A DNA stretch of 64,000 nt, taken from a virus. Taxonomy: Duplodnaviria > Caudoviricetes. The position numbers and the translations under genes were made by a program. The notes under the pieces were generated by a model. The model saw only the letters and a list, made by a program, of their open reading frames with translations. It made no database searches and was not told the DNA's origin. The stretch spans positions 32,001-96,000 of the IMG/VR virus record IMGVR_UViG_3300017911_001939; one strand, written 5' to 3'. Below are positions 12,740 to 35,917 of this stretch, one piece after another; the first letter of the stretch is position 1; each line of letters starts with the position of its first letter.

Positions 12740-12742
12740 AGA

Positions 12743-17845: not shown

Positions 17846-18069
17846 TGGATAAATACATAAATGTAGAAGGAAAAGCTGGTTTAGTAAGAAGTAAAGCTTC
17901 AGGCGCAATCATCAATGTGAATAGCAATGAGATGTCTCAAGCCAGACATAGAAAAAAAATCTGGAAAGATCAACAAGAAGAATTGCAAACTTTAAAAAAT
18001 GATGTAGCCGTGATGAAGGATTTGCTCTTACAACTAGTAGAGGAAAAGAATGGCCGTAACAACAATTAA
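17845..18069 (+). CDS. small conserved coiled-coil protein
   Basis: VEG..GLVR...SGAIIN motif plus coiled-coil C-terminus; commonly follows the large structural gene. Confidence 0.7.
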   Translation: MDKYINVEGKAGLVRSKASGAIINVNSNEMSQARHRKKIWKDQQEELQTLKNDVAVMKDLLLQLVEEKNGRNNN

Positions 18070-18580
18070 TCTGTCGGATCCAGTTTCTACCTGGGTTAAC
18101 AAGACTAATACAATCGCCACTAATGTTGGTGATTTGGCTACGCTATCGACATCCGATACAGCGAGTCTTGTTGCTGCCATTAACGAAATTAATGGTCTGA
18201 TAAATACAAATTTAAATGACTCAAACGAAATTAAAGGGATGTTCGTATCATCTACTTCTATTGAGTTTGATTCATCTGCCGGATCATTTAGCATTATTGA
18301 TTCAGCAGTTACTGGGGCAATGATAGATAATGATGCAATTGTAGAAAGGCATATTGCTGCAGCTTCAATTGTAAATAGTCATCTTTCACCTGGTGCGGTT
18401 GACACATTAGCACTTGCTGATGGAAATGTAACGAATGCTAAATTAGCTGATTCCTCTATCGGCTTCTCAAAAATTCAAGCTGGCGCAATTAAGTCAGTGA
18501 ATTTTGTTAATACAACTACGCTGTTGATTAAAGATTCTGCAGCTACAACATTGAAAACATTATATAGTCCTGGAAGTTAA
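18050..18580 (+). CDS. fibritin/whisker-like structural protein
   Basis: W..KTN, SLVAAINE motifs; repeated VT.AK(L/I)AD units. Confidence 0.55.
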   Translation: MAVTTINLSDPVSTWVNKTNTIATNVGDLATLSTSDTASLVAAINEINGLINTNLNDSNEIKGMFVSSTSIEFDSSAGSFSIIDSAVTGAMIDNDAIVERHIAAASIVNSHLSPGAVDTLALADGNVTNAKLADSSIGFSKIQAGAIKSVNFVNTTTLLIKDSAATTLKTLYSPGS

Positions 18581-18582: not shown

Positions 18583-19539
18583 ATGGCAGTTAGAAATCCT
18601 CTTTATTATTCGTCTGGTGATTTGCAAAAAATGACTGGTGCACAGATTAGTGCTATGATTGATATGGTAATCTATCAATATGGTTCTGATCCATCCGTTA
18701 CACTTACACAAGTTGGCAGTTCTGGTAATCTTGATGCAATGAGTGATACTCGTTTGCAAGCTGGTTCATATATTACTCGCGTAGATAGATATGCGACTGA
18801 AGCTGAAACAGCAGAACCATCAACGGTAACAGTAAGTTATGATCGTATCAATCAAACAAATGCAACCGTAGCACAACTTACATCTGGCGATACAGTTTCA
18901 GGTGCAGGCGAAGGTTCATTTCCATTCTACTATGATGGTGATGATCTAAGAACAATGACGCATACAGATATGCTTGACACGTTTATTCGTCCTGCTATCA
19001 CAAAGCTTACAACTGGTTCAACTGGTACAGATCAAGCTGGTACGTATAGAATTCACACGGCAACATCACTATCAGGCAATACACTAATTAGTTCAACGCC
19101 TGTCTTTATTGATACTCGTGCTAACACGGGTGCATATACGGCTGGTGGTATTCCTGAAACTCTTGATCAGCCTACGACTATTTCTAATTTCTATTTGATG
19201 AGAATTAATCAGGCATCTTCTGCACCAACCGTTGTAAATATGCTAAGACAGACATCGTCGAATGACTTGCAAGAATATACCGATACAGAACAAAACAATA
19301 TGCTTAAGAACATGGTTCGTTGGGCTGCTGTTAATGATACTGGTAATCGAATCCAATATCGTGTTGCTACATCTGGTACAGGAAATGCTCGTGGATCTGG
19401 TATGACAGATACAAAACTAAATGGTTCAGGTAACTATCAAACGCGCTTCGTTAATGCGAACGACTATCGTGCACAGGAATTTCCGAATGGTTCGGCTGTG
19501 ACGCAGAATACATATTATTTAAGAATCTATACAAACTAA
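18583..19539 (+). CDS. hypothetical virion protein with three internal repeats
   Basis: Long S/T/G-rich ORF; repeated DL(Q/R).(M/Y)T and DT(R/K) units. Confidence 0.6.
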   Translation: MAVRNPLYYSSGDLQKMTGAQISAMIDMVIYQYGSDPSVTLTQVGSSGNLDAMSDTRLQAGSYITRVDRYATEAETAEPSTVTVSYDRINQTNATVAQLTSGDTVSGAGEGSFPFYYDGDDLRTMTHTDMLDTFIRPAITKLTTGSTGTDQAGTYRIHTATSLSGNTLISSTPVFIDTRANTGAYTAGGIPETLDQPTTISNFYLMRINQASSAPTVVNMLRQTSSNDLQEYTDTEQNNMLKNMVRWAAVNDTGNRIQYRVATSGTGNARGSGMTDTKLNGSGNYQTRFVNANDYRAQEFPNGSAVTQNTYYLRIYTN

Positions 19540-19551
19540 AGGAATTGAAGA

Positions 19552-20085
19552 ATGGCTTTTCACTGGGAAGAAGGAATTGAATACGCCCGTTATATTGATG
19601 AAGATCGTCAAAATATCGAGGTAATGCATATTATTGAAGACGATGAAAATATTCATGGTCGTTCAGCCAAATTGCATGTATTACCTGCTGATGATAACGA
19701 TGTGCAATTCAAAGCTTTACTCGAGCATTTCACATATGATGATATTATGGAAATGACATATAGCTATAATCAAAATGCAGAACGTGCATTCGAAGAGCAA
19801 GTTATAGCAATCGCCCAAAAATCTGGAGTACTAGCTACTCTAGATGTTGACGTTGTTTCTTATGAATATGTCGATAAGCTTATCGATATTCTCTTCTTAG
19901 AAAAAGGTATTAAAGATAAAGAACTAAAAGAACTTATCTTTAAAACCAAACTTAGATTATTTGAAACTGATTTGGTTAAAAATAATAATAATAAAGAACT
20001 TAAAAGTTCATTACGCAAATCATCGTCACTAAAAGATATTTTTTATATTATGATGCAGATTGAGGAAGATACTCCTCAAACCTAG
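19552..20085 (+). CDS. hypothetical protein
   Basis: ORF with AAGGA SD; no motif recognised. Confidence 0.6.
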   Translation: MAFHWEEGIEYARYIDEDRQNIEVMHIIEDDENIHGRSAKLHVLPADDNDVQFKALLEHFTYDDIMEMTYSYNQNAERAFEEQVIAIAQKSGVLATLDVDVVSYEYVDKLIDILFLEKGIKDKELKELIFKTKLRLFETDLVKNNNNKELKSSLRKSSSLKDIFYIMMQIEEDTPQT

Positions 20086-20848
20086 AAAAATCTTTATTAA
20101 CCACATGATGAAGACTTGCGCCTAAATGCTTAGTCGAAAATGTGTTATCAATTATCCAATTCCAACTTAGTCCAATAGGATTAATTGGTATTTTATAAAA
20201 TTCTTTTATAAAAGAAAAATAGACCTCATTGTTCCTAGAGAATGATGAGGCTATTTCTTTTGGATAGATGTTATCAACTAGTGCTTCATCAAAAATAGTA
20301 TCTGCATAATCCAATCTTTCACTTAATCTAAAATCTTCAATAGCGTTTTTATTGCCAATTAACACGCCGGTGTTAGCAATTTGGTTATTACCGCTGATAC
20401 CTTCTAATAGTAACATTGCATTTTTGCAACATGCCTTTACTACCATATTCATTTTATCAAAATCAATTGTATCAATCCACCAATCACCATATACCCGTTC
20501 TCCCCAATTAGGCTTAGTATCGATAAAATGTGCACCTACATATTTGTGAGTAGCATGTTTATCAAAAATATTTTGAGCGCTTGTGGGTATTACGTCTAAG
20601 TCTAAATAAACTACTTCATCATATTCGTTTGCTAAGTCTTCAAACCTATATAATTTTTCAAACTGTAGGTCATCATAATCTGGAATAGAAGGAGTAAAAC
20701 AATGATATTCTGCATTACACAGATTAGCATAATCTTTGTGAGCAGATATTAATCGATCTTTATATTTTGCAAACGCATCTTTCTTTTCTTGTGGAGATGA
20801 AGTGTGCCTATGAACATCTGCCCAAATACTATAGATAATTCTTTTCAT
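20048..20848 (-). CDS. GT-A glycosyltransferase (DxD)
   Basis: VVYLDLDVIP, NTGV, W..HHVVNK; paralog of the upstream gene; start trimmed to MKRIIYS. Confidence 0.75.
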   Translation of the reverse strand: MKRIIYSIWADVHRHTSSPQEKKDAFAKYKDRLISAHKDYANLCNAEYHCFTPSIPDYDDLQFEKLYRFEDLANEYDEVVYLDLDVIPTSAQNIFDKHATHKYVGAHFIDTKPNWGERVYGDWWIDTIDFDKMNMVVKACCKNAMLLLEGISGNNQIANTGVLIGNKNAIEDFRLSERLDYADTIFDEALVDNIYPKEIASSFSRNNEVYFSFIKEFYKIPINPIGLSWNWIIDNTFSTKHLGASLHHVVNKDFSRFEEYLPQSAS

Positions 20849-21698
20849 AAAAATCAAAAACCTCTTTGAATTTTTTATTGATAACATGTACGAATTTGCT
20901 TTTGCGTGGAACTACTTTATACCTATCATAAAACATATGCCATGGCCAATCCAACCATTGAATAGGTATATTTCTAGTTTTAACTAAGTAAGACCATATC
21001 GTTTCATTATCCCATCCAAACATTTCTCTAATATCTTCAGGATACATTTCGTCGTTTTTTAGATTATCCATATCTTTAATTACGGCATCTAAATTATCGA
21101 AATATGCTAATTGCTTCATATGCTCTGACGATACTCCCACAATGCCTGTATTAAATACATCATTATCGGTGTTATATCCGTTCGATTCTAATAATGCAAA
21201 GCAATTCCAATATTTTGCAGTTGGGCTTCTATTAGATTCGACAGGCCGATTACGCAATTCTCTTAGAGTTTTCTTCGCTAGATTGTTATTATCTTTAATC
21301 GCGATGCCTTTAGATAAGTCGTGCACTTCAAAGAAATTTTCTTGAGTCATAGGAACTACGTCAAAATCTAAATAAAGAATTTCGTCGTAATGACGAGATA
21401 GCTCGTGTATGATTTGTAGCTTATAGAAATTTACTATATTATATTCGGTTATTTGCGGATATGTTTCGTTAAACCATTTTTTATATAATTTAAAATCTTC
21501 ATCATACTCGTACATCAAGAACGTTACACCAATATCATTGGCATATTTTTGTTTACATGCTAATAATTTATCATAATACTTTTGAAATTCTATTTTAGTT
21601 CTTTCGGTTTTAGGTATATCATCACCATAGTAAGGTGCTTGATAATCCAAATCTTCTTTTGGAATATCGATATACAAACTATAAATTACTCTACGCAT
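20829..21698 (-). CDS. GT-A glycosyltransferase (DxD)
   Basis: ILYLDFDVVP, FNTGIV, DNET, W..HVINKKF. Confidence 0.78.
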   Translation of the reverse strand: MRRVIYSLYIDIPKEDLDYQAPYYGDDIPKTERTKIEFQKYYDKLLACKQKYANDIGVTFLMYEYDEDFKLYKKWFNETYPQITEYNIVNFYKLQIIHELSRHYDEILYLDFDVVPMTQENFFEVHDLSKGIAIKDNNNLAKKTLRELRNRPVESNRSPTAKYWNCFALLESNGYNTDNDVFNTGIVGVSSEHMKQLAYFDNLDAVIKDMDNLKNDEMYPEDIREMFGWDNETIWSYLVKTRNIPIQWLDWPWHMFYDRYKVVPRKSKFVHVINKKFKEVFDFYEKNYL

Positions 21699-22356
21699 AA
21701 CCAATTACCATATATCTTTCATAACCGTTTGACATTTTTAATTTGCCAGAATATTTAATGTTAGATAATCCGCATTTATCTTCAAGTTCCCATCTTGAAT
21801 TTACACAATTGCTGTGGTCATCAATATGAAACATATTATTGCTTTGAATTGCAAATAATGGTATTTCATAATTACGTCTATGAAAAAATGGTTCGATATA
21901 CTTTTTTCGAATAATATTTTTCATGTCTGGCATATGTTCTGATGACGTGTTAATTATTAGATTAGCTTTTTCATCTAAAGGACCATTTTCTTGAACATCC
22001 CCGCATCGCTCAGCATAAGCATAGTTTTTTAATTTCATATAACGTCTAAAAACATTTAATGATTTAATATCTAAATCAATATTTTCTACAAAGGAAATAT
22101 CTAATGTAGAGTTTAATAATGCCACAATGGGAAAGCCTATCCATCCTCCAAATAGTTGAACATGAATATCGTCTTTTTCTAAAAGATGCGGTATAATTTT
22201 ATCTACTAGCCATACTTTCGATTCAATTTGATGTGGTGACATAGAATCAAGTAAATGTTTTATGTCATACTTTTCGCTTTCTGTATTTTCCCATAAAATT
22301 TGCCAAATATCTGGATCAATTCCAATAGTGTTCAAATCCATCATAGCCCTCATCAT
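21691..22356 (-). CDS. class I SAM-dependent methyltransferase-like protein
   Basis: SKVWL, GGWIG, IDLD, INTSSEHM, QSNN motifs. Confidence 0.65.
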   Translation of the reverse strand: MMRAMMDLNTIGIDPDIWQILWENTESEKYDIKHLLDSMSPHQIESKVWLVDKIIPHLLEKDDIHVQLFGGWIGFPIVALLNSTLDISFVENIDLDIKSLNVFRRYMKLKNYAYAERCGDVQENGPLDEKANLIINTSSEHMPDMKNIIRKKYIEPFFHRRNYEIPLFAIQSNNMFHIDDHSNCVNSRWELEDKCGLSNIKYSGKLKMSNGYERYMVIGYA

Positions 22357-23023
22357 CTAACAAATATTTGCCATTAATATATTCGGTATTCCGTCTCCAT
22401 CCGTTAAATATGCAGACAGGATATGTATCATCTTTAAAAAGAGGTTTAGATTTTGTGCCAGCTTTAAAGTAATTGTTTTCATCAATACCGTATAACCGGG
22501 AATAGATTTCACCTTTCGGAAATACATTAAGCTTATCGTAATGGTGATAATATAGATATGAATCTATACCATTATATTTTACCATATAATAATCAGGATC
22601 TTTCATAAATTCTGACCATATAGATGTTAGATCACCGTGCCATATCATAACAGACGAGTTATAGTTCATATCGGTACCAGTCAATTCGTATGGTTTCCAA
22701 TATGCCTCGATAAGTCTTAGCTTACTCTTCTCGCAATAATCTTTGAAGTGTGTAATGTCATTTTGCAGTACGACATCTAAGTCAAAGAACATTTCAGGAA
22801 CTACAGCTGGTTCTTTAAATAACCGTAGTTTCCACCACCAGTTTTCTAAATCATATTCTTGTTCGAGAGGTTTTCTTAGAATATATGGATGCAAACCGCG
22901 AGGATCATCAGTATAGCAAACGAATCTAAATGATTCGTTAAACTGTTTTGTGCACATAGCATATAATCGATTTACATGCTCGTACGAAAACTTATCACCC
23001 CATTTTACGCAAGATATAATCAT
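22316..23023 (-). CDS. GT-A (GT8-like) glycosyltransferase
   Basis: CVKWGDKF..VNRL, FVCYTD, WWKLRLF, FFDLDVV, NSSVM. Confidence 0.8.
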   Translation of the reverse strand: MIISCVKWGDKFSYEHVNRLYAMCTKQFNESFRFVCYTDDPRGLHPYILRKPLEQEYDLENWWWKLRLFKEPAVVPEMFFDLDVVLQNDITHFKDYCEKSKLRLIEAYWKPYELTGTDMNYNSSVMIWHGDLTSIWSEFMKDPDYYMVKYNGIDSYLYYHHYDKLNVFPKGEIYSRLYGIDENNYFKAGTKSKPLFKDDTYPVCIFNGWRRNTEYINGKYLLDDEGYDGFEHYWN

Positions 23024-24545
23024 TAATAACCAATAAATCTAATTCTGTTTTTTCAAATGTAGCTATAGCATCTTCAGGCGTTTCAACGATAGGTTCTTTA
23101 CAATTAAAACTAGTATTCAATAGCATTGGAATTCCAGTAATTTTATAGAACTCGTTAATAAGATCGTAATATTTGCGATTCTGTTTACGATTTAGTGTTT
23201 GAATGCGCGCAGTACCATCTACGTGCGTAACACCTGGAATTTTATCAGAAATAACAGGCATAATTCTAGACATATATGGACTCGGTTGATTAGTATCAAA
23301 ATATTCTTTGTAATGTTCTTCCATAACAGAAGGAGCAAATGGTCTAAAATCTTCTCGCTGTTTAATTGTATGATTAATTCTATCTTTAATATGAGGATCA
23401 CGAGGATCAGCTAAAATACTACGATTACCAAGAGCTCTATTACCCGATTCGCATTTTCCTTGATACCAACCAACTACTGCGCCATCGGCTATAGCTTGTG
23501 CTACTTCTTTATAGTCTACCCTTTCAGTGCCAATATATTTGTATTCTTTACCAGAATAAACTGTAGGCCTATGTCGATTTTTATTAAGAGTATAATCGGC
23601 ATGGATGTATGTGCCAATAGATTGACCCTCATCTCCAGGTGCCGGAGGTACATGAACCTTTTTATATGTTTTAGTAAATTCCTCATTCATATAACCGTTA
23701 TATGCTACACCTCCAGCAACGCATAGATTGTTGCAAGATTTTAAAGGTAACACATGCTCATCAATTAATTCTTGTGTTGCATATTGTAATGTATATGCAA
23801 CATCTTCTATCTTAGTATGATCTAAAGTTTTTTCTATATCTTCTGGAAATGGATCAATCTTTACATTGTATTCTCCACGTCTATTCTTTTTTAGCTCCAT
23901 TTTGTGCTTAAAAATATTTTTATTATATTCATCAATTATCATATGGATTTTTAAATTATATTCTCCATATCCAGCAAGACCCATAAGTTTACCAGCACCT
24001 AAATGTCCGAATCCCAATTGTTTCGAAAAATAATTCCATAGAATGCCGATATTCATTTTATCTGAAAGATCGGTCATACGCCCATCTTTATCAAAGAACA
24101 CACAGTTATAGTGCCAACCTCTACCATCAATGGCTAAAATATCAGACTTTCTAAATCCTGAATCCATATATGCATATGCGGCGTGTGATTGATGATGGTC
24201 AATGTAATATACATTATCAATCATAGCATAGTCCCATAAATTCTTTGGTTTAAAACCAAAGAACTCATAATATAATTCTCTATCAGCTAATAAGCTAACT
24301 CCACCTTTAGTGGTAGTAAAAGCAAAAACTTCATGTTCTTCTGGCTTATGATATTCATCATAAAATTTTAACATAAATTCATCATCATCTTGATTCATGC
24401 TAATTAGTTCTGATTGATGCGAATACACATCCACATGCCATGGAATATTATGTTTACGTCTGCTGTATCTTTCTATTTGATTGTGCAAAACACCATCATA
24501 AGTATTTTGGTCATGTGGACTTAGTGCGATACTAAAGATTTTCAT
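22995..24545 (-). CDS. carbamoyltransferase, NodU/CmcH/TobZ family
   Basis: HHQSHAA, DGRG, GKLMGLAGYG, GGVAYN, RALGNRSILADP, REDFRPFAP, HVDGTARIQT, LLNTSFN. Confidence 0.93.
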   Translation of the reverse strand: MKIFSIALSPHDQNTYDGVLHNQIERYSRRKHNIPWHVDVYSHQSELISMNQDDDEFMLKFYDEYHKPEEHEVFAFTTTKGGVSLLADRELYYEFFGFKPKNLWDYAMIDNVYYIDHHQSHAAYAYMDSGFRKSDILAIDGRGWHYNCVFFDKDGRMTDLSDKMNIGILWNYFSKQLGFGHLGAGKLMGLAGYGEYNLKIHMIIDEYNKNIFKHKMELKKNRRGEYNVKIDPFPEDIEKTLDHTKIEDVAYTLQYATQELIDEHVLPLKSCNNLCVAGGVAYNGYMNEEFTKTYKKVHVPPAPGDEGQSIGTYIHADYTLNKNRHRPTVYSGKEYKYIGTERVDYKEVAQAIADGAVVGWYQGKCESGNRALGNRSILADPRDPHIKDRINHTIKQREDFRPFAPSVMEEHYKEYFDTNQPSPYMSRIMPVISDKIPGVTHVDGTARIQTLNRKQNRKYYDLINEFYKITGIPMLLNTSFNCKEPIVETPEDAIATFEKTELDLLVINDYILRKMG

Positions 24546-25326
24546 AGATATAATCCGCTAATATTTTTTGGCCTTCTGCATTTGGGTGAGCATCTTCTTC
24601 TGATATTCTATATTTTTTATAATCATCAACTTCGTGTGATATAACGTAAAATGGTTTTTCTTTATTTTTATGATCTATACCTATAAAATCGATAGGAGAT
24701 AATCTTTTATAATAAGGAGAGTTTAATATAACACTAAGAGCTGCTTCATCAAAATCTGCTCGGTCTTCGAATTTAAAGTGATTCCACCACCTAGATGCAC
24801 CCCATCTTTCTTGTGATGCTGGCAATCCGCCGGAATTGCCAAACTGTTGTTTGAAATAATGGCTATATAATTGTATCATTTGGAATTGTTTTAATGGGAT
24901 TCTTTGACTAGCACAAATAGTTTGTATGCTATAAAAATATCTTAAGCTTTCTTTTATCCATCCAAGAATGTTTCCTTGAGGTTTTACTCTTTCGTTACGC
25001 CAAGTAAATTGATACTCTGTCATATTTCTATATCTATTATGGGCTTTATAAACGCTTTCGAAATCATATCTTTGAGCCTGTGACCATGCCAACATAACAT
25101 AGCCAATATCTTTAGGATCATACTCTTGCATAGCATCTAATACAGAACTATAAATCATATGATTTCCTTGTCCGCATTTGCCGACATTTACAACTTCCAT
25201 CCCTAATTTACTACCCACAAGCTCTGGCCATTTAGGCCAACTCGTATCTAATTTAGGATGGTAATCAGATGTGAAATTTTCATCTGTCCAACTATCACCG
25301 CCTGCTATTAGTATTTTTCTAGCCAT
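24532..25326 (-). CDS. SGNH/GDSL-fold protein (O-acyl transferase or esterase)
   Basis: Block I GGDSWT, block II GQGN, block V DAHP. Confidence 0.75.
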   Translation of the reverse strand: MARKILIAGGDSWTDENFTSDYHPKLDTSWPKWPELVGSKLGMEVVNVGKCGQGNHMIYSSVLDAMQEYDPKDIGYVMLAWSQAQRYDFESVYKAHNRYRNMTEYQFTWRNERVKPQGNILGWIKESLRYFYSIQTICASQRIPLKQFQMIQLYSHYFKQQFGNSGGLPASQERWGASRWWNHFKFEDRADFDEAALSVILNSPYYKRLSPIDFIGIDHKNKEKPFYVISHEVDDYKKYRISEEDAHPNAEGQKILADYIYENL

Positions 25327-25735
25327 GTAATTTTTTCCATTGCTTATTAAACGTAAGCATTCTTTCTTCTACTGATGGATAATACATATACGAATCTAAA
25401 TCTACCATATAAGGCTTCTTCGTATTTTCACATACGATATAATTTTGTCTATGGAAATCGTTGAATGTATAATCTGATTTATGATTTACAATATCCTCTA
25501 TTACTGTATTAGGTTCTGTAAAATAAAAACCTTTTATATAATCAATTATAATAGTAATCGTCTTATCTTCAATAGAATACTCATAATTAGGAATTAGTAT
25601 TCTATTAAAATTTTCACTTCTCAATCTAGTTAAATTATCATATACAATTTTTGCATAATCTACGGTTTGATATTCAATTACTTTAGTAAGAGTAAATGTT
25701 TTTATATTCGTTCTAAGCGAATCCACATAATACAT
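25319..25735 (-). CDS. small protein-kinase-like (PKL fold) protein
   Basis: DYIKG hinge, catalytic-loop-like DFHRQNY, metal-binding-like VDLD. Confidence 0.5.
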   Translation of the reverse strand: MYYVDSLRTNIKTFTLTKVIEYQTVDYAKIVYDNLTRLRSENFNRILIPNYEYSIEDKTITIIIDYIKGFYFTEPNTVIEDIVNHKSDYTFNDFHRQNYIVCENTKKPYMVDLDSYMYYPSVEERMLTFNKQWKKLHG

Positions 25736-25738
25736 ATT

Positions 25739-26563
25739 TTAAAATCCTAGTGTTCTATCATTTAGTGCCACGATAAGATTATCTAAAGTATGTTCTCCTT
25801 GTTCAGAAAGTTGCTCAGTGCATATTTTACAATATTCTTCATACTGAAATAAATCGAAATTCATCATCTTCTCGATGTTCTTTTTTGTTACATCAAATGT
25901 CTTAGAACCATTAATTACTTTTTTACTGCAGTGCCTTATTTTTTGCATTTCAAAGTCAATGACTGGAACTGAAGGATATTTGGCACAAAGCTTTCTAGTA
26001 ATTTCAGAAGCTTGCATATCTACATCATAAAACGGTGATCTTGCATTAAATTTTTTAAACATAGTATTATCATGATCTATATGTGATAAGTCATAATTTT
26101 CTCTAAATTTAAAATAATTAGGAGTTTGAATAATAACGTTATAGTTGTTATTATCATTTTGCTCTAAAAAATCATAGTTACCTAGTTTTTCAATGCGATC
26201 TTCATGAAAGTCTAGTACTAGGTGTTCGACATAATAAATTGAAGGATCTTCTAATATATGTGGATAACGCTTGCGCACAAACGAATTAGACAATACTGAA
26301 GGAATAAGAGTAGGATATTTTTTAATTTCAGCAATGACTTCATCCAAATTTTTTACTAGGCCTGGTTCTCCACCTAGCAAATTAATTTTTGCTTTGTATC
26401 TAGAAAGATATTTTAATGTTTTACTTAGAAAATCCATATCTACTTCTAGATTTCTCATTTCCAATGTCCATGCTGTACAGTAATGGCATGACTTATTGCA
26501 AGATTTTGTTAAATAAAAATCAATACCAAAATATCCATTCGCTTTTAAATCTTTATAATTCAT
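25739..26563 (-). CDS. radical SAM protein with C-terminal Cys motif
   Basis: CNKSCHYC (CxxxCxxC), GGEP, C-terminal C..HC..CKIC. Confidence 0.9.
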   Translation of the reverse strand: MNYKDLKANGYFGIDFYLTKSCNKSCHYCTAWTLEMRNLEVDMDFLSKTLKYLSRYKAKINLLGGEPGLVKNLDEVIAEIKKYPTLIPSVLSNSFVRKRYPHILEDPSIYYVEHLVLDFHEDRIEKLGNYDFLEQNDNNNYNVIIQTPNYFKFRENYDLSHIDHDNTMFKKFNARSPFYDVDMQASEITRKLCAKYPSVPVIDFEMQKIRHCSKKVINGSKTFDVTKKNIEKMMNFDLFQYEEYCKICTEQLSEQGEHTLDNLIVALNDRTLGF

Positions 26564-26919
26564 GTTGAATCCACTTTTTCGGGTTTGCCATCTGCTGACA
26601 AAACGATTTGCTTTTTATGGCTATCAGTTTCTCTCTTTTTACAGATATGATGGCATATGCCAAAACCTTTACCTTCTTTTAAATCTTCAAAAAACTTAAC
26701 CCATTCATCTTGTAAAATAATTTCATCTAAAGATTCGTAATCATCAATTTTACTGACAGCTAATAAATCTTTATACCTAGGTTCTTTTCTAGTATGCTGA
26801 TTATCACACCAACAACACGGAATAAGTTCTCCCAAATTTGTAACAGCAAACGCGTTTTGTTGATTATTAAAACATTTAGGCTCTATTTCATGTCGAGAAT
26901 CATATTTGTCTAATTCCAT
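26560..26919 (-). CDS. stand-alone SPASM/Twitch-like Fe-S domain
   Basis: PKC..GELIPCCWCD..ICHHIC. Confidence 0.65.
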   Translation of the reverse strand: MELDKYDSRHEIEPKCFNNQQNAFAVTNLGELIPCCWCDNQHTRKEPRYKDLLAVSKIDDYESLDEIILQDEWVKFFEDLKEGKGFGICHHICKKRETDSHKKQIVLSADGKPEKVDST

Positions 26920-26922
26920 AAT

Positions 26923-27573
26923 TTAATTTCTCCTCAGTGAAAGAGCCATCTCTTTATTTTTTGGTTTCAATGGATCATTTTTTCCTTCCCATCGAGAAGA
27001 ATATAATAGTCTAAATTTGATATTAGGAAGGTCTGCAATTAAACTTCTAGCTTCTTCTATATGATGTTCATTATAACTAAATACAATATATTGCCAATCT
27101 GCGCGATCTAAATATTTAGCAGATTCCCTAATAAGTCTAAGCATCTTATGACCGTCTTGATTTTTTCGGTATTTGTCGCTTTCATCAGGTAATCCGTCTA
27201 ATCCAAAAAACCATACTGCATGTGGATTTGCTTTCCAAGCTTTAGGATACCAACTTTCTGGTTTAGCCGCAGATGCGTGGTGTACTGTTACAGAATTTCC
27301 ATTTTTGTATGCCATTTCTAGCATTTCTATAAACTTGGGATGGTGCACTGGATCTGATACTTGACCACAAAAATTAATATGATAAAAATGATTTAAAATT
27401 TTTTCATATCTATCCAAAGGCATATCTTCTCCAGTTACTTTTAATCCCTTAGAAGTAAATGAAGTGTATCTTTGGCATCTTAAACATTCTAACGGACATC
27501 TATGCGTGATATCAATATTACACGCTGGTCTGTGATGAAATGTATTTGGATCTACTGGTAATTTTTCTCCCAT
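26923..27573 (-). CDS. radical SAM protein (core only)
   Basis: CPLECLRC, FCGQVSDP, FGLDG, WQYIVFSYNEH. Confidence 0.88.
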   Translation of the reverse strand: MGEKLPVDPNTFHHRPACNIDITHRCPLECLRCQRYTSFTSKGLKVTGEDMPLDRYEKILNHFYHINFCGQVSDPVHHPKFIEMLEMAYKNGNSVTVHHASAAKPESWYPKAWKANPHAVWFFGLDGLPDESDKYRKNQDGHKMLRLIRESAKYLDRADWQYIVFSYNEHHIEEARSLIADLPNIKFRLLYSSRWEGKNDPLKPKNKEMALSLRRN

Positions 27574-27580
27574 ATAATCC

Positions 27581-27940
27581 TCACATATAATTAATTTTGT
27601 CTATAGACTTATTAAGAGAAGTTTCACACCATATTTTAAATTGTTTATTTAAAGCAGTTAGAAGATTATATTCTACTATATGATTGAAATGTTCTATAAA
27701 ATATTTAGCATTTGCATTGTTAAAAGATAAGTAAGTCTTTTCGACTATTAAATCATAAATTTCTGGACATACACCTTTAGTATATTCTTCATTAATTATA
27801 AATTCTTCATAACAATGTTCACTAAAAATTTTATGCAGATGTACTTCTTTTTTAAGTCTATCAGACACATCTATTAAATTAAAGTTTTCGTCAAGAATAC
27901 AAAATTTATCTATTTCTTTGTCAATTAATAATTCTACCAT
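27581..27940 (-). CDS. hypothetical protein
   Basis: Tightly packed ORF within the operon. Confidence 0.6.
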   Translation of the reverse strand: MVELLIDKEIDKFCILDENFNLIDVSDRLKKEVHLHKIFSEHCYEEFIINEEYTKGVCPEIYDLIVEKTYLSFNNANAKYFIEHFNHIVEYNLLTALNKQFKIWCETSLNKSIDKINYM

Positions 27941-27941
27941 A

Positions 27942-29006
27942 TCAGACTCTTAATGCAACTGTGTTGATGACATGTTCAATTTCCTCATCTTTTAACCAAG
28001 CATGAATAGGTAACGAAAGTACGGTGTCTGCAGTATGCCGTGCTACTGCACAATATCCGCTACGATATTGGATATGGTTGTACATTGAATTATCGGGAAT
28101 AACTCGCTCATAATGTACTGATCCACCTAAAGCTTTCTTTACTTCGTTACGCGTTTCTTTATCCTCGAATTGTATTACGTATTTATGATAGTTGTGGTTG
28201 TCATGTTTTTGCGGAGTCTTTACAAGACCATCGAATTCATAATCATATTCTTTTGCAATTTCTTGTCTACGCTTTTGCCATTGTTCCATAAACTGAAAGC
28301 GATGTAGAATAACATCTGCATTAAAGTTATACATCTTTGAGTTGTAGCCCAACATAGCAAAGTCTTTATCTTTACCATGCTTAGCAAGCATACGTACTGT
28401 CTTGGCAATCTGATCGTCATCTGTCATAAACATGCCACCGCCTGAGATACCAGCAATGACTTTATTACCATTAAAGCTGTACGAACTACAATCACCAATT
28501 GTACCAGCCTTGCGGCCATTTAGACTTACACCTAATGACTGAGCCGCATCTTCAATAAAGACAATATCATTTTCTTTACAATAGTTCTCAATCTCGGTAG
28601 TATCGGTCATATTACCAAAAAGGTGTGTATAGATGAGAGCGCAGTTACCATCACGCTTCATCTTTTTTACAGACTCAAGTGTCATATGATAAGAGTCAGG
28701 ATCAATATCACAAAAGACTGGCATTGCACCCGCCATAGAGATACAACTTGCTGATGAGATCCATGAAAAACCAGTCACAAAGACTTGCCAACCTGGACCA
28801 ATGCCATGTGCTTTCAAAGAAAAATACAATGCATCGGTTGCACTACTTACAGGCACACAGTGTTTACGACCTGTATAATCTCTGAACGCTTGCTCTAGCT
28901 CTTCGGTTGGCCCTTCTGGTTCTTTTGCCATAGCCTTGTCAAAGAGTTCATAATATAGTTCTTTATTCTCGAGATATTCTCTATCCCAACCGTTGTAGTT
29001 CATCAT
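27942..29006 (-). CDS. DegT/DnrJ/EryC1/StrS PLP-dependent sugar aminotransferase
   Basis: SATDAL, PVFCDID, HLFG, IEDAAQSLG, SFNGNKVI (PLP Lys), GYNSKM, LSLPIH. Confidence 0.93.
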   Translation of the reverse strand: MMNYNGWDREYLENKELYYELFDKAMAKEPEGPTEELEQAFRDYTGRKHCVPVSSATDALYFSLKAHGIGPGWQVFVTGFSWISSASCISMAGAMPVFCDIDPDSYHMTLESVKKMKRDGNCALIYTHLFGNMTDTTEIENYCKENDIVFIEDAAQSLGVSLNGRKAGTIGDCSSYSFNGNKVIAGISGGGMFMTDDDQIAKTVRMLAKHGKDKDFAMLGYNSKMYNFNADVILHRFQFMEQWQKRRQEIAKEYDYEFDGLVKTPQKHDNHNYHKYVIQFEDKETRNEVKKALGGSVHYERVIPDNSMYNHIQYRSGYCAVARHTADTVLSLPIHAWLKDEEIEHVINTVALRV

Positions 29007-29826
29007 ATGCTTTCATAATAGGTTCAATATTGGGCTTTTCTATAGAACGTCGACTATAAACCCAACCGCCATCTCTAATTTTTGTAGATCTATTATACTC
29101 TATTTTCTTATCGAAGTACATGCATTCTTGCAAAATTCTTGGCGCAGGATCAAATTGCTCTTTCGCATACACATACGTATTAAACATGCCTAATAAATTA
29201 TCTACAGGTGCGAAAATATTTTGTAAAAGGGGGTTTACAAACGCTTCTTTATATGTTATAATAAAGTATGACTTGTAGGAGGGAGCCAGTATACCCGCCC
29301 TTTCGTAGTACTGTTTTCCAGTCCCTAAAAACATATGTTCTGCTTTTAGATCTGGAACAGGATCTTTGTAAATATCAAAATTAATTCTTTTTTCGAAGTG
29401 ATCACCTACACCATTCACATACACATCAGTGTCACATAGATCATATACATGTCGTGGTCTAAAATAGTCTAAAGCATAATTATACTCTATAGGATGATTT
29501 TCAGAATATACTGATATTAGTTTGTGCGAAAACGCATCTATTAGAGAGAATAGTTGGTCATGACTATACTTATCTTTTAATTTCCACGCGTGAGTAAGCA
29601 TACTTCTACCCATAATAAGGGTAACATCGGTTTCTTCATAGAAATATTCGAATGATACATTTTTACAATGTACATACTTTTTTTCTAAAGAAGTGATATA
29701 ATCATTTACTTTGAAATCTGGATGTGGTATAATAATAAGTCGAGCATCGAGTAAAGATGCATATTCATAACTATAATATAACAAACCATCGCACGGCTTA
29801 CTCGTACATAGAATGTTCAATCTCAT
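28981..29826 (-). CDS. hypothetical protein, possibly a divergent GT-B glycosyltransferase
   Basis: C-terminal FDPAPRILQEC resembles the GT-B Ex7E region; weak. Confidence 0.4.
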   Translation of the reverse strand: MRLNILCTSKPCDGLLYYSYEYASLLDARLIIIPHPDFKVNDYITSLEKKYVHCKNVSFEYFYEETDVTLIMGRSMLTHAWKLKDKYSHDQLFSLIDAFSHKLISVYSENHPIEYNYALDYFRPRHVYDLCDTDVYVNGVGDHFEKRINFDIYKDPVPDLKAEHMFLGTGKQYYERAGILAPSYKSYFIITYKEAFVNPLLQNIFAPVDNLLGMFNTYVYAKEQFDPAPRILQECMYFDKKIEYNRSTKIRDGGWVYSRRSIEKPNIEPIMKAYDELQRLG

Positions 29827-30563
29827 TGCGAATCAAATGCCCATTTCTTTTCATAACACCAAAAACAATGACCACACTCTTTTGCAAAATAATCTGTTTC
29901 TCTTGCTGTACCCACGCACGAACCAGTAATTGGATAAAGAGTTTTCATTAAGCCTTCTTCTTTATAAACACCTGCTACAAATTTTTTATCAACATTTATA
30001 TATGGCCTATATTCATCACCTTTTCCTGCCCAATTTTCTTGTGTATACGATCTTCTTTTTTCAGCAAGGTGATCAAAACCAATATTTTTCATAATATCTT
30101 GTGGCGGATTTTTTGTTATACCAGTGACGATTAAACACTCGTGCATTTTTTCGCAAATTTCTAAATGTTTTTGTTTTTCTAAAACTTTTACTAGACCTTC
30201 AATGTTATTACATCTATCAACATATTGGCCATCTATTAATACGCGTTCATCATTCCAACGCTCTTTAGCATATTCTTGCAATTCTTGATCATAAATGTCG
30301 AATTCATAGATATAGTGTTGACCGATTTTATGATTTGGAAATGTATCTTTCATAAATTCTACAATATCTAATGAGCAGAGCGCATCAAATGGAGCAGTCA
30401 AATCTTTTCCCGTAAAAGGAATAATTTCGACATTTGGAAAATGTTTACAGATTAAGTATAACAGAGATGCCGAATCAAGTCCTCCAGATAGCGATAAGAT
30501 AATTTTATCAGGAACATACTTATCGAATAGATCTATCGTTTGGTTTCCATAACTAATTTTCAT
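29823..30563 (-). CDS. QueC-like PP-loop ATP pyrophosphatase
   Basis: SLSGGLDSA PP-loop; C-terminal SC...CGHCFWC Zn site. Confidence 0.75.
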   Translation of the reverse strand: MKISYGNQTIDLFDKYVPDKIILSLSGGLDSASLLYLICKHFPNVEIIPFTGKDLTAPFDALCSLDIVEFMKDTFPNHKIGQHYIYEFDIYDQELQEYAKERWNDERVLIDGQYVDRCNNIEGLVKVLEKQKHLEICEKMHECLIVTGITKNPPQDIMKNIGFDHLAEKRRSYTQENWAGKGDEYRPYINVDKKFVAGVYKEEGLMKTLYPITGSCVGTARETDYFAKECGHCFWCYEKKWAFDSQ

Positions 30564-30583
30564 TATTAAAACTCCATTTTATA

Positions 30584-31219
30584 TCATTTTATCCAATTGA
30601 TAACTTCGTCATAATCAGGCTTATGTTCTCCTGCATTTTTTATATATTTTTGCGGATAACGTCCAGAATGTTTATATCCGAATTGCATAGAAAATATTAC
30701 TTTTTCGTTATCAAGAAATTTCAATTCTTTTTGTAACATTTCGGATTTATAGCATAGCAAATAAGAAACTTGTAAACCGGCTTCAATACAAAGGCCAGAT
30801 AATATGGTAGAAAACATTCCAATTTCTATAGCATTTTCTCTCATTTGAGTATCACCATTGTATCTCTGTGGATCTACACAATAATGCTCAAATACTCTTT
30901 TTCTTTGAAATATACGTAACACAGAATCATTAGGAAAGGTTAGCCTAGAAGTAAAAAGAAGAACATAAGGAGCATATACATTTTTATTGATAAAGGTGCC
31001 ATTATGTGTAGATGCCTCATACAAGATTTCTTTTTCTTTTTTGTGTTTAGGCTGCAATACGTGAACTGTGTATGGCATTAAAGATTGTTTAGACGGTACT
31101 AATTCGTACGTTTTTTTAAGCAATTCTTCTACTAATTCTTGAGGTGGTTCTTCTCGGCCGTAATATCGAATTTGAGTCCTTTTACTAAATACGTCTTCTA
31201 TCGGCATCTTTCTCTCCAT
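30584..31219 (-). CDS. nitroreductase-family FMN protein
   Basis: KRTQIRYY, VPSKQSLMPY, IEIGM..GL.VSY..C, FGY. Confidence 0.72.
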   Translation of the reverse strand: MERKMPIEDVFSKRTQIRYYGREEPPQELVEELLKKTYELVPSKQSLMPYTVHVLQPKHKKEKEILYEASTHNGTFINKNVYAPYVLLFTSRLTFPNDSVLRIFQRKRVFEHYCVDPQRYNGDTQMRENAIEIGMFSTILSGLCIEAGLQVSYLLCYKSEMLQKELKFLDNEKVIFSMQFGYKHSGRYPQKYIKNAGEHKPDYDEVINWIK

Positions 31220-31280
31220 ATAAATACCATCACCAATTTATTTATATGTATAAATAGGTCTGTATGGTTTTGTATAAATA
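31219..31280. promoter_or_regulatory. divergent late promoter cluster: TATAAATA on + at 31219, 31249, 31273 and on - at 31239-31246
   Basis: Four exact T4 late boxes in 62 bp between two divergent operons. Confidence 0.88.
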
Positions 31281-31309
31281 TAGACAAACAACGTAAAGAG
31301 TATTTGTGA

Positions 31310-31660
31310 ATGGCCCAATACGAAGAAATTACAATTGATCAAGGTGCGGATGCATCTATTGAACTACATCTTGTGAATACAGATGGCTCTAAGAAAAATC
31401 TTACGAACCACACCGTCACAGCGAAAATGAAAAAGAATTATACGAGCGACAGTTCAGACACAACCGATTTTGTGTCAACAATCGCAAATGCTCTTGACGG
31501 TATTGCAACTATTTCATTAACAAATCTACAAACAGATGCCCTTAAAGCAGGTCGATACGTTTATGATGTTGAGCTATCATTTCAAGATAGCGATGGTGAT
31601 ACGATTATTGAAAGGGTGTTAGAAGGTAAAATTACAATCACGCCGTCTGTAACGAGGTAA
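31310..31660 (+). CDS. conserved Ig/BppU-like small virion protein
   Basis: IDQGAD, GRYVYDVE, RVLEGKITITPSVT motif family of marine T4-like phages. Confidence 0.7.
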   Translation: MAQYEEITIDQGADASIELHLVNTDGSKKNLTNHTVTAKMKKNYTSDSSDTTDFVSTIANALDGIATISLTNLQTDALKAGRYVYDVELSFQDSDGDTIIERVLEGKITITPSVTR

Positions 31661-31663
31661 GTC

Positions 31664-31924
31664 ATGGCAATAAGAGTCGGTACAGGTCAGACTACTCAAA
31701 TAAAGACGGTTAGAGGCGTTGGTCAAACAACACAAGTTCGAAAGGTTGTTGTTGGTCGACCAGTAAGAAACGTTAGTTCGGGTGCTACAGATATTAATAA
31801 CCTTTTAGGTGTTGATACTTCAGGCAGAGTTGATGGCGCTATCTTACAGTTTGACGCGGCTCTTGGTGTATTTGTGGCAAATGCCGAACTAACAAAACAG
31901 GACATTAACGGAGGCAATTATTAA
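31664..31924 (+). CDS. small fibre-associated protein
   Basis: L.GVDT..DGAILQFD and terminal INGGNY motif. Confidence 0.6.
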   Translation: MAIRVGTGQTTQIKTVRGVGQTTQVRKVVVGRPVRNVSSGATDINNLLGVDTSGRVDGAILQFDAALGVFVANAELTKQDINGGNY

Positions 31925-33585
31925 TGGCCACTATTATTAGAATCAAAAGATCGACGGGTACCAGCGCTCCAGGGTCATTAAAATCAGGCGAACTCGCCTA
32001 CTCCTCAGGTGCCGGTACTCAAGGAAACGGCGGTGATCGACTTTACTTTGGTAAAGGTGATGACGGCTCAGGTAACGCAACAACCGTAGAAGTTATCGGC
32101 GGTGCTTATTTCTCTAACTTGCTGGATCATGTAGCTGGTACCCTTACAGCAAGTAGTGCAATTATCGTTGATGCGTCTTCTAAGATTGACAACCTTAAAG
32201 TTGACAACTTAGATCTTAACGGCAACACAATTAGTTCTACAGACACTAACGGTAATATCGTACTTGATCCAAATGGTGCAGGTACAGTCGATGTTAATAC
32301 ATCGAAGATCGTTAATGTTACAGATCCTACCGCAGCACAAGACGCTGCGACCAAGAAATACGTAGATGATCAAAATGCTGCTGGTAGCTTAGACATCTCT
32401 ACTGATTCTGGTGGTACTCATACATTAATGCTTCAAGACTCTGACCTTACCATCGTTGGTGGTACAGGTATTGGTACTCGTCTTGATGCACATCAAATTA
32501 CAGTCGAACTCGATAATACTGCGGTTTCTGCTGGCACATATGGTAGTGCTACTGCGATTCCTGCTATTACTGTTGATGCACAAGGTCGAATCACGTCTGC
32601 CTCTACTAATAACGTGGCTACAGACCTTACAGTCGCAGCTGATGCTGGTACAAATGCGACGGTCTCACTCTTAACAGATACACTGACAATTCAAGGTGGC
32701 ACAAACATTAACACTACTGTTGGTGGTGATGTTGTTACAGTTCACCTGGATTCTTCTGTTTCGATTAATACTCAGTTAACTGTTGACAATATTAAAATTA
32801 ATGGTAACACGATTAGTTCAACCGACGGTTCTAATCAGTTATACCTCGATCCGGCTCCTGAAGATTCTGATGGTGGTGATCTTATTGTTCGTGGTAACCT
32901 ACAAGTTAATGGTACAACCACGACAATCAATTCTGTCAACTTGTCAGTTAATGATAAACTCATTACACTTGCCGATTCTGCCGCAGACTCCGCTGCTTCA
33001 GATGGTGCGGGTATTGAGGTCGCAGGTTCGAATGCGTCTATCAAATATGATAATGCGACTGGTCGATGGGACTTTAACAGAGACATTGAAGCCGATGCAT
33101 TCCACGGTAATGTAACTGGTGATATTACGGGTGATGTTACTGGTAACGTAACAGGCAATGTGACTGGTAATATCGATGGTGACTCTGGTGACCTGAGAAC
33201 ATTTACTGCAAATACTATTACATCTGGTTCATTAACCACAGATTCTGCAACAATTGACGGTGACCTACGATTAACTGGTAACCTACTTGATGCTACAACC
33301 GACAATATCACTGAAGGTTCTTCTAACCTTTACTTTACTGACGAACGTGTCGATGATCGATTAAATAACCTCTTATTAGCAGGTGAAGGTATCGATCTTA
33401 CCTATGACGATGCAGCAAACTCACTTACTATTGATGGTGAAGATGCTACGTTAACGAATAAAGGTATTGCTTCATTTGGTGGTTATGCTGACTCGGCTAA
33501 TGCTCCTGTTCCGGGTAATGCAAGACAGTTTAGCTTGACAAACGGAGATGTTACTATCGCAGTGATTGACGGCGGAACATATTAA
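31924..33585 (+). CDS. tail fibre protein
   Basis: IRIKRS..P..L..GELAY N-terminus, DAATKKYVD, GNVTG repeats, TTDNITEGSSNLYFTDER, terminal IDGGTY. Confidence 0.85.
   Translation: MATIIRIKRSTGTSAPGSLKSGELAYSSGAGTQGNGGDRLYFGKGDDGSGNATTVEVIGGAYFSNLLDHVAGTLTASSAIIVDASSKIDNLKVDNLDLNGNTISSTDTNGNIVLDPNGAGTVDVNTSKIVNVTDPTAAQDAATKKYVDDQNAAGSLDISTDSGGTHTLMLQDSDLTIVGGTGIGTRLDAHQITVELDNTAVSAGTYGSATAIPAITVDAQGRITSASTNNVATDLTVAADAGTNATVSLLTDTLTIQGGTNINTTVGGDVVTVHLDSSVSINTQLTVDNIKINGNTISSTDGSNQLYLDPAPEDSDGGDLIVRGNLQVNGTTTTINSVNLSVNDKLITLADSAADSAASDGAGIEVAGSNASIKYDNATGRWDFNRDIEADAFHGNVTGDITGDVTGNVTGNVTGNIDGDSGDLRTFTANTITSGSLTTDSATIDGDLRLTGNLLDATTDNITEGSSNLYFTDERVDDRLNNLLLAGEGIDLTYDDAANSLTIDGEDATLTNKGIASFGGYADSANAPVPGNARQFSLTNGDVTIAVIDGGTY
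33106..33180 (+). repeat. 12-nt coding tandem repeat (G-N/D-V/I-T)n
   Basis: GNVTGDITGDVTGNVTGNVTGNIDG. Confidence 0.8.
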
Positions 33586-33590
33586 TACCA

Positions 33591-33626
33591 TAGCCTGAGT
33601 TTTTACTCACTAAGGCTACCTTTTTT
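33591..33626 (+). terminator. bulged hairpin with U-tract (possible intrinsic terminator or attenuator)
   Basis: TAGCCT-GAGT-TTTT-ACTC-ACTA-AGGCTA-CC-TTTTTT, intergenic. Confidence 0.5.
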
Positions 33627-33637
33627 AAGGACTGGAA

Positions 33638-35236: not shown

Positions 35237-35676
35237 TGGCAACAAAGATTAAATCAGGCAATTTTAGTATTGATGCCAATCAACATATTAGATTAGAATC
35301 ACCATTCGGTAGATTTGCTGCAGAAAACTATCCGACTTCTGCTGATAGTGCTACTGCACCTGGTGCAAGTGCAATCGCGTTAGGTGCTAGTGCAAATGCA
35401 GGTCATACAAATTCTACTGCAATTGGTATTGATGCACATACCAATGATAGCAGTCAAGTTATGCTTGGTGGTCCATCTATTAATTCTATTCGTGTTGGCA
35501 ATAGTTCGTATACACCAACCGATAGCGCAGATTTGGTCACAAAAAAATATGTAGATGATAATGAAATTGCAGGCATTGATTCTGCCGCTACAATTGCATT
35601 GATTGATAGTGATTATATCAGAACACGAGAAACACCATCTGACTCATTACTTAATGCATTGATTTTTGGAGGTTAA
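35236..35676 (+). CDS. fibre module with YadA-head-like repeats
   Basis: SAIALGASANA..STAIG, VTKKYVD neck motif, C-terminal LNALIFGG. Confidence 0.65.
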   Translation: MATKIKSGNFSIDANQHIRLESPFGRFAAENYPTSADSATAPGASAIALGASANAGHTNSTAIGIDAHTNDSSQVMLGGPSINSIRVGNSSYTPTDSADLVTKKYVDDNEIAGIDSAATIALIDSDYIRTRETPSDSLLNALIFGG

Positions 35677-35677
35677 C

Positions 35678-35917
35678 ATGGTATCAAAGGCAAGACATCT
35701 AGCATCATTAGCGAAAGCTCTGAATACAAATTCAAATGGAGCGGTAGAAATGTCTGGTGACATGATTCCAGAGAATGCTATTACTCAAGCTAAAATTGCT
35801 CCAGGTGCAGTTAATTTTACGGAAATGGCAGATAGCGCAGGTTATGCAACAGGTGCGCTTGATAGTGCATTCGGTATTATGATGGACGAATTAATTAATA
35901 TTGCGGAGAACAGATAA
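35678..35917 (+). CDS. small virion protein
   Basis: SKAR.LA N-terminus; ITQAKIA repeat; GGAGG SD. Confidence 0.6.
   Translation: MVSKARHLASLAKALNTNSNGAVEMSGDMIPENAITQAKIAPGAVNFTEMADSAGYATGALDSAFGIMMDELINIAENR

Follow-up and report, generated by a model that had tools for sequence, protein, structure and literature searches.

The closest described counterpart of the locus studied here is an island of pelagimyophages, which lies between VrlC and gp14 in a so-called 'host recognition cluster' and in which GT8 transferases and radical S-adenosylmethionine (SAM) cassettes have been noted (Zaragoza-Solas et al. 2020, PMC7029224). The 'LPS clusters' (LPS, lipopolysaccharide) of cyanophages have also been discussed (PMC3037559). 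In Pelagibacter phage Mosig (MT647606), the island corresponds to genes Mosig_00082-00094. We analyzed a window of 64,000 nucleotides that spans bases 32001-96000 of the 123,209-bp linear IMG/VR contig IMGVR_UViG_3300017911_001939 (completeness estimate, 73%), which comes from an uncultured marine T4-like phage. At the same site after VrlC, and likewise antisense to the structural genes, this DNA carries an operon of 15 open reading frames (ORFs), designated orf1 to orf15 in order of transcription, at positions 20048-31219 of the minus strand. Judging from the assignment of its genes to families, the operon is a glycan-building and tailoring unit, and an earlier note on this DNA had thus read it correctly.

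We propose, with somewhat less than even confidence, that the acceptor of the glycan is a virion protein. This proposal draws on the late promoter box of the operon, its fixed fibre-gene context, a phage-specific transferase family, and an enzyme set that is predicted to be entirely soluble.

Organization of the operon

The 15 ORFs are translationally coupled, with junctions of -59 to +20 nt between them, and form the sole long minus-strand run of the 123-kb contig. The GC content of the block is 0.295-0.33 (0.39 over the DegT gene only), compared with 0.36-0.43 in the flanks, and baseplate and fibre genes, which encode a gp6-like wedge protein, a VrlC-like protein of 1700 amino acids (aa) and fibre proteins, flank the block on both sides. 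The ORF map and base composition are thus those described in the earlier note (15 tightly coupled minus-strand genes, more AT-rich than their surroundings), and the flanking genes confirm the position within the tail gene cluster. The gp6-like wedge protein shows 46% identity to its counterpart in phage C48C1 and 32-34% identity to its counterparts in the Methylophilales Melnitz phages and in the Pelagibacter myophages HTVC008M and Mosig. A check for hydrophobic stretches revealed no membrane helix in any of the 15 operon proteins, and the operon is predicted to encode only soluble cytoplasmic enzymes.

Glycosyltransferases and a SAM-dependent transferase

The operon is predicted to encode four glycosyltransferases, one GT-B (a candidate) and three retaining GT-A enzymes, together with a SAM-dependent transferase.

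28981-29826, minus strand: orf3, compact GT-B (GT4-like) glycosyltransferase candidate, from the ESM Atlas
22316-23023, minus strand: orf12, retaining GT-A (GT8-like) glycosyltransferase with a DLD motif
21691-22356, minus strand: orf13, class-I SAM-dependent transferase, closest to spermidine synthases
20829-21704, minus strand: orf14, retaining GT-A (GT8-like) glycosyltransferase; likely start at 21698
20048-20887, minus strand: orf15, paralog of orf14; likely start at 20848

Sequence-profile searches of the PDB yielded nothing for orf14, orf12 or orf3, and the assignments came instead from predicted folds or from the ESM Atlas. The AlphaFold2 (AF2) model of orf14 (predicted local distance difference test [pLDDT] score, 94.4) matched PBCV-1 A64R, LARGE1, XXYLT1, LgtC and GT6 enzymes in Foldseek at 1e-6, and that of orf12 (pLDDT 83) matched LgtC, glycogenin and GT6 enzymes at 6e-7. 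Both proteins combine the GT-A fold (Foldseek E values of 1e-6 to 1e-7) with a DxD motif whose aspartates (D113/D115 and D81/D83) are invariant. In addition, orf12 matches the glycosyltransferase family phrog_1962 at 8e-16, and some homologs of orf14 carry PF01501. With 25% identity to orf14 and the shared columns S9, D13, YLDxD, NTG, NE and H..NK, orf15 would be a GT-A enzyme by paralogy with orf14 only. The earlier designation of orf12, orf14 and orf15 as GT-A enzymes therefore agrees with the models and with this paralogy. The true start of orf14 is probably ATG 21698, as suggested by homologs of 289 aa, and that of orf15 is probably at 20848.

For orf3, which has no sequence match in Pfam or the PDB, the ESM Atlas gave a feature score of 0.90 and a structure template modeling (TM) score of 0.6-0.66 to Glycos_transf_1 clusters, in support of the earlier label of unknown or GT-B-like; its Mosig homolog is 46% identical. 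The protein looks GT-B-like in these predictions, which provide a lead rather than proof. A profile of orf13 built from 28 homologs matched spermidine synthases at 2e-6, ahead of plain methyltransferases, and also matched CntL, with the invariant NTS(C)EH aligning with the DSSD motif of spermidine synthases. Given these matches, the term methyltransferase used in the earlier note may be too narrow, although the class-I SAM fold that it implies is present.

Sugar-tailoring and other enzymes

The remaining ten genes include those for the predicted tailoring enzymes.

30584-31219, minus strand: orf1, nitroreductase-like flavoprotein; likely start at 31207
29823-30563, minus strand: orf2, PP-loop ATPase with a C-terminal Cys cluster; QueC-like at the SGGxDS loop only
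27942-29006, minus strand: orf4, DegT/PseC-type pyridoxal phosphate (PLP)-dependent sugar aminotransferase
27581-27940, minus strand: orf5, no family match; GC content of 0.22
26923-27573, minus strand: orf6, radical-SAM core with CPLECLRC
26560-26919, minus strand: orf7, detached SPASM/twitch-like Cys-rich subunit of orf6
25739-26563, minus strand: orf8, second radical-SAM enzyme with CNKSCHYC and conserved C-terminal cysteines
25319-25735, minus strand: orf9, no family match
24532-25326, minus strand: orf10, SGNH/GDSL-type esterase or acyltransferase
22995-24545, minus strand: orf11, NodU/CmcH/TobZ-family carbamoyltransferase

The aminotransferase, the carbamoyltransferase and the two radical-SAM enzymes named in the earlier note are all confirmed by Pfam and NCBIfam. 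PF01041 matches orf4 at 2e-79 over residues 34-350, and the catalytic lysine is present in SFNGNK, as expected for a member of the DegT/DnrJ/EryC1 family; PseC and LegC models match at 1e-50, with all equivalog models below their cut-offs. The Kae1-like and YrdC-like domains of the carbamoyltransferase family are both found in orf11 (PF16861 at 3e-68 and PF02543 at 1e-24), which is 59% identical to Mosig_00089 and is not a NodU equivalog (144 bits versus a cut-off of 1000). CPLECLRC of orf6 and CNKSCHYC of orf8 are invariant, and radical-SAM membership of both proteins is further indicated by PF04055 and by PDB profile matches. PF04055 matches orf8 at 7.5e-8, and viperin and BtrN match it weakly and over the core only (BtrN, E value of 0.07), whereas the profile of orf6 matches GDGT-MAS at 2e-5.

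The region 26560-27573 appears to encode a radical-SAM enzyme in two parts, a core of 216 aa and a SPASM/twitch-like subunit of 119 aa. No SPASM or twitch family model in Pfam or NCBIfam matched orf7, which contains CX13GX4C followed by CCWC and CHHIC; compared with the SPASM pattern CX9-15GX4C-then-CX2CX5CX3C...C, the first half fits and the second is atypical (CCWC ... CX3C). In fused homologs of 300-330 aa, however, orf6 aligns with the N-terminal and orf7 with the C-terminal part, so that the two together would correspond to a split radical-SAM/SPASM-like enzyme. The split is kept in Mosig-type operons, and the fused form occurs in other relatives.

Two of the earlier assignments are retained on the basis of matches close to threshold. 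Pfam PF00881 matches orf1 at 1e-4, slightly below the cut-off, and a profile of 21 homologs matches PDB nitroreductases and iodotyrosine deiodinase at 1e-5, which supports a nitroreductase (Mosig homolog, 38% identity). PF13472 matches orf10 at 4e-5, also under its cut-off, but the SGNH motifs, namely GDS with Ser12, Gly52/54 and D245-x-H247-P-N, show no variation among 21 homologs. For orf2, the PP-loop ATPase part of the description as a QueC-like protein stands, with C216, C230, C233 and C236 invariant in the homolog alignment. Its identity as QueC was rejected: about 30 residues around SGGLDS match, at 17.5 bits versus a cut-off of 150. Modification of DNA with 7-deazaguanine (QueC/D/E) was likewise rejected, given that the PP-loop alone matches and that the two 119-aa ORFs are not QueD; family-model scans recognized no QueD, QueE or FolE. 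Scans of Pfam, NCBIfam and PHROG gave no match for orf5, which has homologs in eight related loci, or for orf9, which has homologs in one or two only, and the earlier description of orf9 as kinase-like was thus not upheld.

In the pathway that we propose, host nucleotide sugars would supply the four transferases with the units of a short sugar chain. A keto group made by a radical-SAM dehydrogenase would be aminated by the DegT enzyme, according to the logic of BtrN/BtrS; the absence of a dehydratase from the operon would make such a route necessary. Carbamoylation, alkylation, and acylation or deacylation of the chain would follow. The acceptor would not be DNA and would most probably be an outward-facing tail or fibre protein of the virion, made concurrently from the neighbouring late genes.

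Alternatively, the same enzymes might make a soluble product that is released or used within the cell, for example a modified peptide or a small glycoside, whether aminoglycoside-like or of another kind. The combination of a radical-SAM dehydrogenase, a DegT enzyme, a TobZ-like enzyme and glycosyltransferases resembles the logic of aminoglycoside tailoring. Peptide maturation can likewise involve SPASM enzymes, nitroreductase-like (SagB-type) proteins and PP-loop ATPases, and peptide maturases were among the weak NCBIfam matches. We nevertheless consider a soluble product improbable, given that genes for a cyclitol synthase, a precursor peptide, an exporter or resistance were not recognized and that the fixed linkage to fibre genes would be left without explanation.

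Distribution and exchange of the cassette

A set of 50,697 phage records gave no megablast match to the operon, and Mosig was the only one of these records found to contain a homolog of orf14. Mosig has homologs of orf1, orf3, orf4, orf6, orf7, orf8, orf10, orf11, orf12, orf13 and orf14. A scan of IMG/VR with orf14 alone also gave no match; an alignment of the orf14 family was needed, and identified at least 445 contigs with the family, mostly at the site after VrlC. Neighbourhoods were counted in the best 80 of these at least 445 loci. The cassette has two constant neighbours.

18583-20085, plus strand: genes for a 318-aa and a 177-aa protein, convergent with orf15 (38-nt overlap)

Between 45 and 58 of the 80 loci also had VrlC, the 318-aa gene (55 loci) and the 177-aa gene (58 loci) as neighbours on the opposite strand, and each of orf1, orf3, orf4, orf6, orf7, orf8, orf10, orf11, orf12, orf13 and orf15 was present in 20-53 loci (orf15 in 39). 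The orf14 family has 1362 metagenomic homologs, and in 185,579 bacterial and archaeal species genomes it was detected in only four contigs of metagenome-assembled genomes. The cassette is a widespread and phage-specific element. In marine T4-like phages its site is fixed, following VrlC and the 318-aa gene within the hypervariable 'host recognition cluster', and the copy in this phage is, by its sequence, a working one. It is not unique, the island type having already been published (PMC7029224). In minimal loci, two GT-A genes are divergent from a gene for a nucleoside diphosphate (NDP)-sugar epimerase/dehydratase-like protein.

The genomic backbone and the cassette have different nearest relatives. 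Backbone proteins (gp6, a gp8-like protein, VrlC, a 116-aa protein and a fibre) show 42-63% identity to those of the related IMG/VR contigs G001 and G003, versus 31-39% to those of Mosig. The 318-aa, 177-aa, orf13 and orf14 proteins are nearer to Mosig than to G001 and G003, with the 318-aa protein, for which the ESM Atlas returned nothing, being 51% identical to its Mosig counterpart versus 29-40% in the backbone relatives. At the same site, G001-G003 carry the orf12-orf13-orf14 trio only, on the structural strand in line with the fibre genes, an arrangement that supports a virion acceptor. From the identities, the trio in G001-G003 and the low GC content, we infer that the region of about 18583-31219 was exchanged with a Mosig-like lineage.

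In Mosig, the cassette is paired with an opposite, divergent operon (L001:551-6804) that has no counterpart in the window. This partner operon contains genes for Asp/Arg hydroxylase-like, TauD-like and desaturase-like proteins, an acetyltransferase, a methylase, a peroxiredoxin and a flavin mononucleotide (FMN) reductase, kinds of enzyme that often act on proteins.

Promoter and timing of expression

A promoter box of the T4 late type precedes the operon.

31239-31246, minus strand: T4 late-type promoter box TATAAATA, 31 nt upstream of ATG 31207

The octamer TATAAATA is present in 20 copies in the contig. Given that 15 of these are intergenic and that most of them are followed, at a distance of 5-60 nt, by a same-strand start codon, we take it to be a genuine late-type signal. 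At five other genes of the contig, the spacing to the start codon is 28-32 nt. According to an alignment of homologs, the start codon of orf1 is probably ATG 31207, preceded by GGAGAG, rather than the one at 31219, preceded by GGTGATGG, which gives the box a spacing typical of this genome. A late promoter at the head of the operon, predicted from motif and spacing, is thus consistent with the earlier note; of the two elements that the note had placed before the first gene, the perfect TATAAATA stands, whereas GGTGATGG is probably not the Shine-Dalgarno sequence. The homologous operon of Mosig starts 5 nt after TATAAATA and, as in this phage, has the late box only. No sigma-70-like site was found before the operon here (best match, 7/12), and such sites (11/12) precede genes in non-structural parts of the same contig. 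When the region was scanned for generic sigma-70 sites, the number found (74) did not exceed that expected by chance (74.1). The box belongs to a 90-bp divergent control region (31220-31309) that serves the operon and a gene for a 116-aa fibre-assembly-like protein and that has TATAAATA on both strands, with plus-strand copies at 31219, 31249 and 31273 in addition to the minus-strand copy.

Virion proteins and host surface as possible acceptors

Several points weigh against a virion acceptor. The sequence upstream of the cassette was compared among 39 distinct relatives, 11 of which (28%) have a sigma-70 consensus of at least 11/12, four of them perfect; in the same loci, such a consensus precedes 2.3% of other gene starts. 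This finding suggests that the cassette may be expressed early in these relatives, and the cassette family is therefore not uniformly late. The argument of the earlier note from late timing to the virion is weakened accordingly, even though the late box itself is present here and in Mosig. The capsid-glycan transferase A64R of PBCV-1, which is the top match of orf14, scores no better than LPS or blood-group transferases. The published study of the island type proposes a change of the host O-chain (PMC7029224). Modification of the virion is itself predicted from genes and context. A further point concerns a motif of the virion proteins, described below.

A NATAAATA box precedes the cassette in 13 of the 39 relatives and is often nested in the sigma-70 spacer. 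Eight loci (L127, L142, L160, L173, L152, L136, L151 and L169) have a perfect or near-perfect TTGACA-N17-TATAAT upstream of the cassette, and several of these promoters contain an (N)ATAAATA late box inside the spacer.

In the outer virion proteins, no dipeptide is more enriched than DS (111 observed versus 47 expected, z = 9.7). DS forms part of an Asp-Ser motif, D-S-small residue, which is absent from enzymes and from inner virion parts. Enrichment was observed at window positions 9473-18580, 31310-38891 and 42141-62689. In one fibre, 23 of 23 DS dipeptides stand before a small residue (z = 11), and the fibre protein encoded at 33638-35236, with many (I/V)DS(D/A)Y(V/I)xxR repeats, is the densest carrier. 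The motif is common to G001-G003 and a further relative, G006, and is absent from Mosig and C48C1. Most loci with the full operon do not have it (z about -1) despite the presence of orf13 and orf14, which also counts against the proposal. The motif follows the lineage that bears gp42, a deoxycytidine monophosphate (dCMP) hydroxymethylase, and not the operon. A link between motif and operon is therefore not supported, and the motif, which does not co-occur with the operon, is not usable as evidence for the acceptor or as a sequon. Its association with promoter type was not significant (p = 0.41). The 318-aa protein of this phage is without the motif, and its homolog in G003 has seven copies.

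Conversion of the host surface, the alternative named in the earlier note, is a serious rival to virion glycosylation; we regard it as nearly as likely, though with confidence well below even. The enzymes would act from the cytoplasmic side to remodel a glycan of the host envelope, be it LPS core, O-chain or capsule, so that the receptor is masked against superinfection or progeny are kept off debris. Temperate phages keep seroconversion genes beside tailspike genes, which favours this explanation, as do the nature of GT8-like enzymes, which are typical LPS transferases, the presence of LgtC among the top fold matches, and the early-type promoters and published O-chain proposal mentioned above. 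The operon, however, contains no membrane protein, flippase, polymerase or polyprenyl-phosphate transferase. The lack of a membrane-helix stretch in its 15 proteins differs from O-antigen conversion of the Gtr/Oac type, but is still compatible with a reaction of the LPS core at the cytoplasmic face. Given that the glycosyltransferase family is nearly absent from bacterial genomes, host LPS loci were not its recent source. In addition, this phage and Mosig have the late box only, which would leave little time to alter the host surface.

With regard to the unusual aminated, carbamoylated and methylated virion glycan put forward in the earlier note, the glycan enzymes and the low likelihood of a DNA substrate (see below) speak for it, whereas the Asp-Ser motif provides no support for the virion as acceptor. 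Should virion glycosylation be correct, the operon might represent the first such pathway of T4-like phages: a late and phage-specific route by which tail-fibre or outer-baseplate proteins receive an oligosaccharide that is aminated, carbamoylated and alkylated, with radical-SAM enzymes replacing the usual nucleotide-sugar dehydratases. Phage lineages would exchange this route together with the neighbouring fibre gene. We regard this broader interpretation as doubtful.

DNA as a possible acceptor

A third possible acceptor is DNA, with the transferases decorating 5-hydroxymethylcytosine (hmC) of the phage genome with a tailored sugar. The contig encodes, outside the window, a full-length homolog of gp42 with about 50% identity to T4 gp42, and the GT-B-like fold of orf3 is that of the T4 glucosyltransferases. 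A few relatives have pairs like orf6 and orf7 beside gp42, with a carbamoyltransferase-like gene also present at one locus; these families therefore probably act on sugars, whichever the acceptor. Mosig and G008, however, are complete genomes that carry the full operon and no gp42 (Mosig uses ThyX). The operon thus works without hmC, and the co-occurrence with a hydroxymethylase that glycosylation of hmC-DNA implies is not seen in these two genomes. The late-type box and the position among fibre genes also argue against DNA.

Relatives with gp42 moreover have a dedicated cassette at another site. In 80 related loci, the gp42 group is followed by a variable cassette and then by UvsX and DnaB. 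These cassettes contain a DNA alpha-glucosyltransferase (AGT, PF11440) or proteins of unknown family, as well as UDP-glucose dehydrogenase, an epimerase and a C5-methylase-like gene. In the present contig, the hmC locus lies at the contig end (G000:C1:119660-123177), with gp42 flanked by a DUF1599 (Nmad1) protein, a cytidylyltransferase-like protein and dCMP deaminase, and includes a 389-aa protein of a family that stands where relatives carry the AGT. The cassette begins after gp42 and dCMP deaminase, and neither AGT nor an epimerase was found in the part of it that precedes the contig end. DNA is thus an unlikely acceptor on these comparisons, and its hypermodification by the operon seems very improbable to us. 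The earlier note had argued against DNA on the basis of late timing and of location among virion genes, and the genomes without gp42 together with the separate gp42-adjacent cassette provide stronger support for that view than does timing alone.

Comparison with known systems

Hundreds of phages that are abundant in the ocean, SAR11 phages among them, have such cassettes. Were the virion the target, marine phage particles would carry self-made glycans, with consequences for host range, grazing and particle stability; were it the host surface, the cassettes would be a major route of receptor masking. Mosig, which is in culture on Pelagibacter HTCC1062, combines 11 of the 15 genes with the same upstream late box, so that an answer can be sought at the bench.

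With BtrN/BtrS and TobZ, the operon would share its chemistry, namely oxidation of a sugar hydroxyl by a radical-SAM enzyme, PLP-dependent transamination and ATP-dependent O-carbamoylation. BtrN is matched weakly and there are no cyclitol genes here, so that the likeness is one of logic rather than of membership. Glucosylation of hmC in T4 has a true parallel in the gp42 homolog of this phage and in the PF11440 enzymes beside gp42 in relatives, but it belongs to the replication module, whereas the operon studied here also occurs without gp42.

Mycobacteriophages reportedly have glycosyltransferases encoded next to structural genes and a proven glycan on the virion, as Freeman et al. are said to have described in 2023. 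Those systems comprise one or two transferases and no tailoring enzymes, whereas the present one is predicted from its genes. Unusual sugars made with aminotransferases are found on the virions of giant viruses. The glycans of PBCV-1 (A64R) and of Mimivirus fibrils also involve virus-encoded GT-A enzymes, but giant viruses infect eukaryotes and the likeness of fold to orf14 is generic (TM about 0.45).

The closest system is the Mosig island, in which 11 of the 15 genes have homologs (28-59% identity) and a late box stands at the operon head. In comparison, orf2, orf5, orf9 and orf15 are without a direct Mosig counterpart, and the gene order differs. The backbone of the present phage belongs to the gp42-bearing lineage with Asp-Ser-rich virion proteins, whereas the block itself is Mosig-like, more AT-rich, and looks exchanged.

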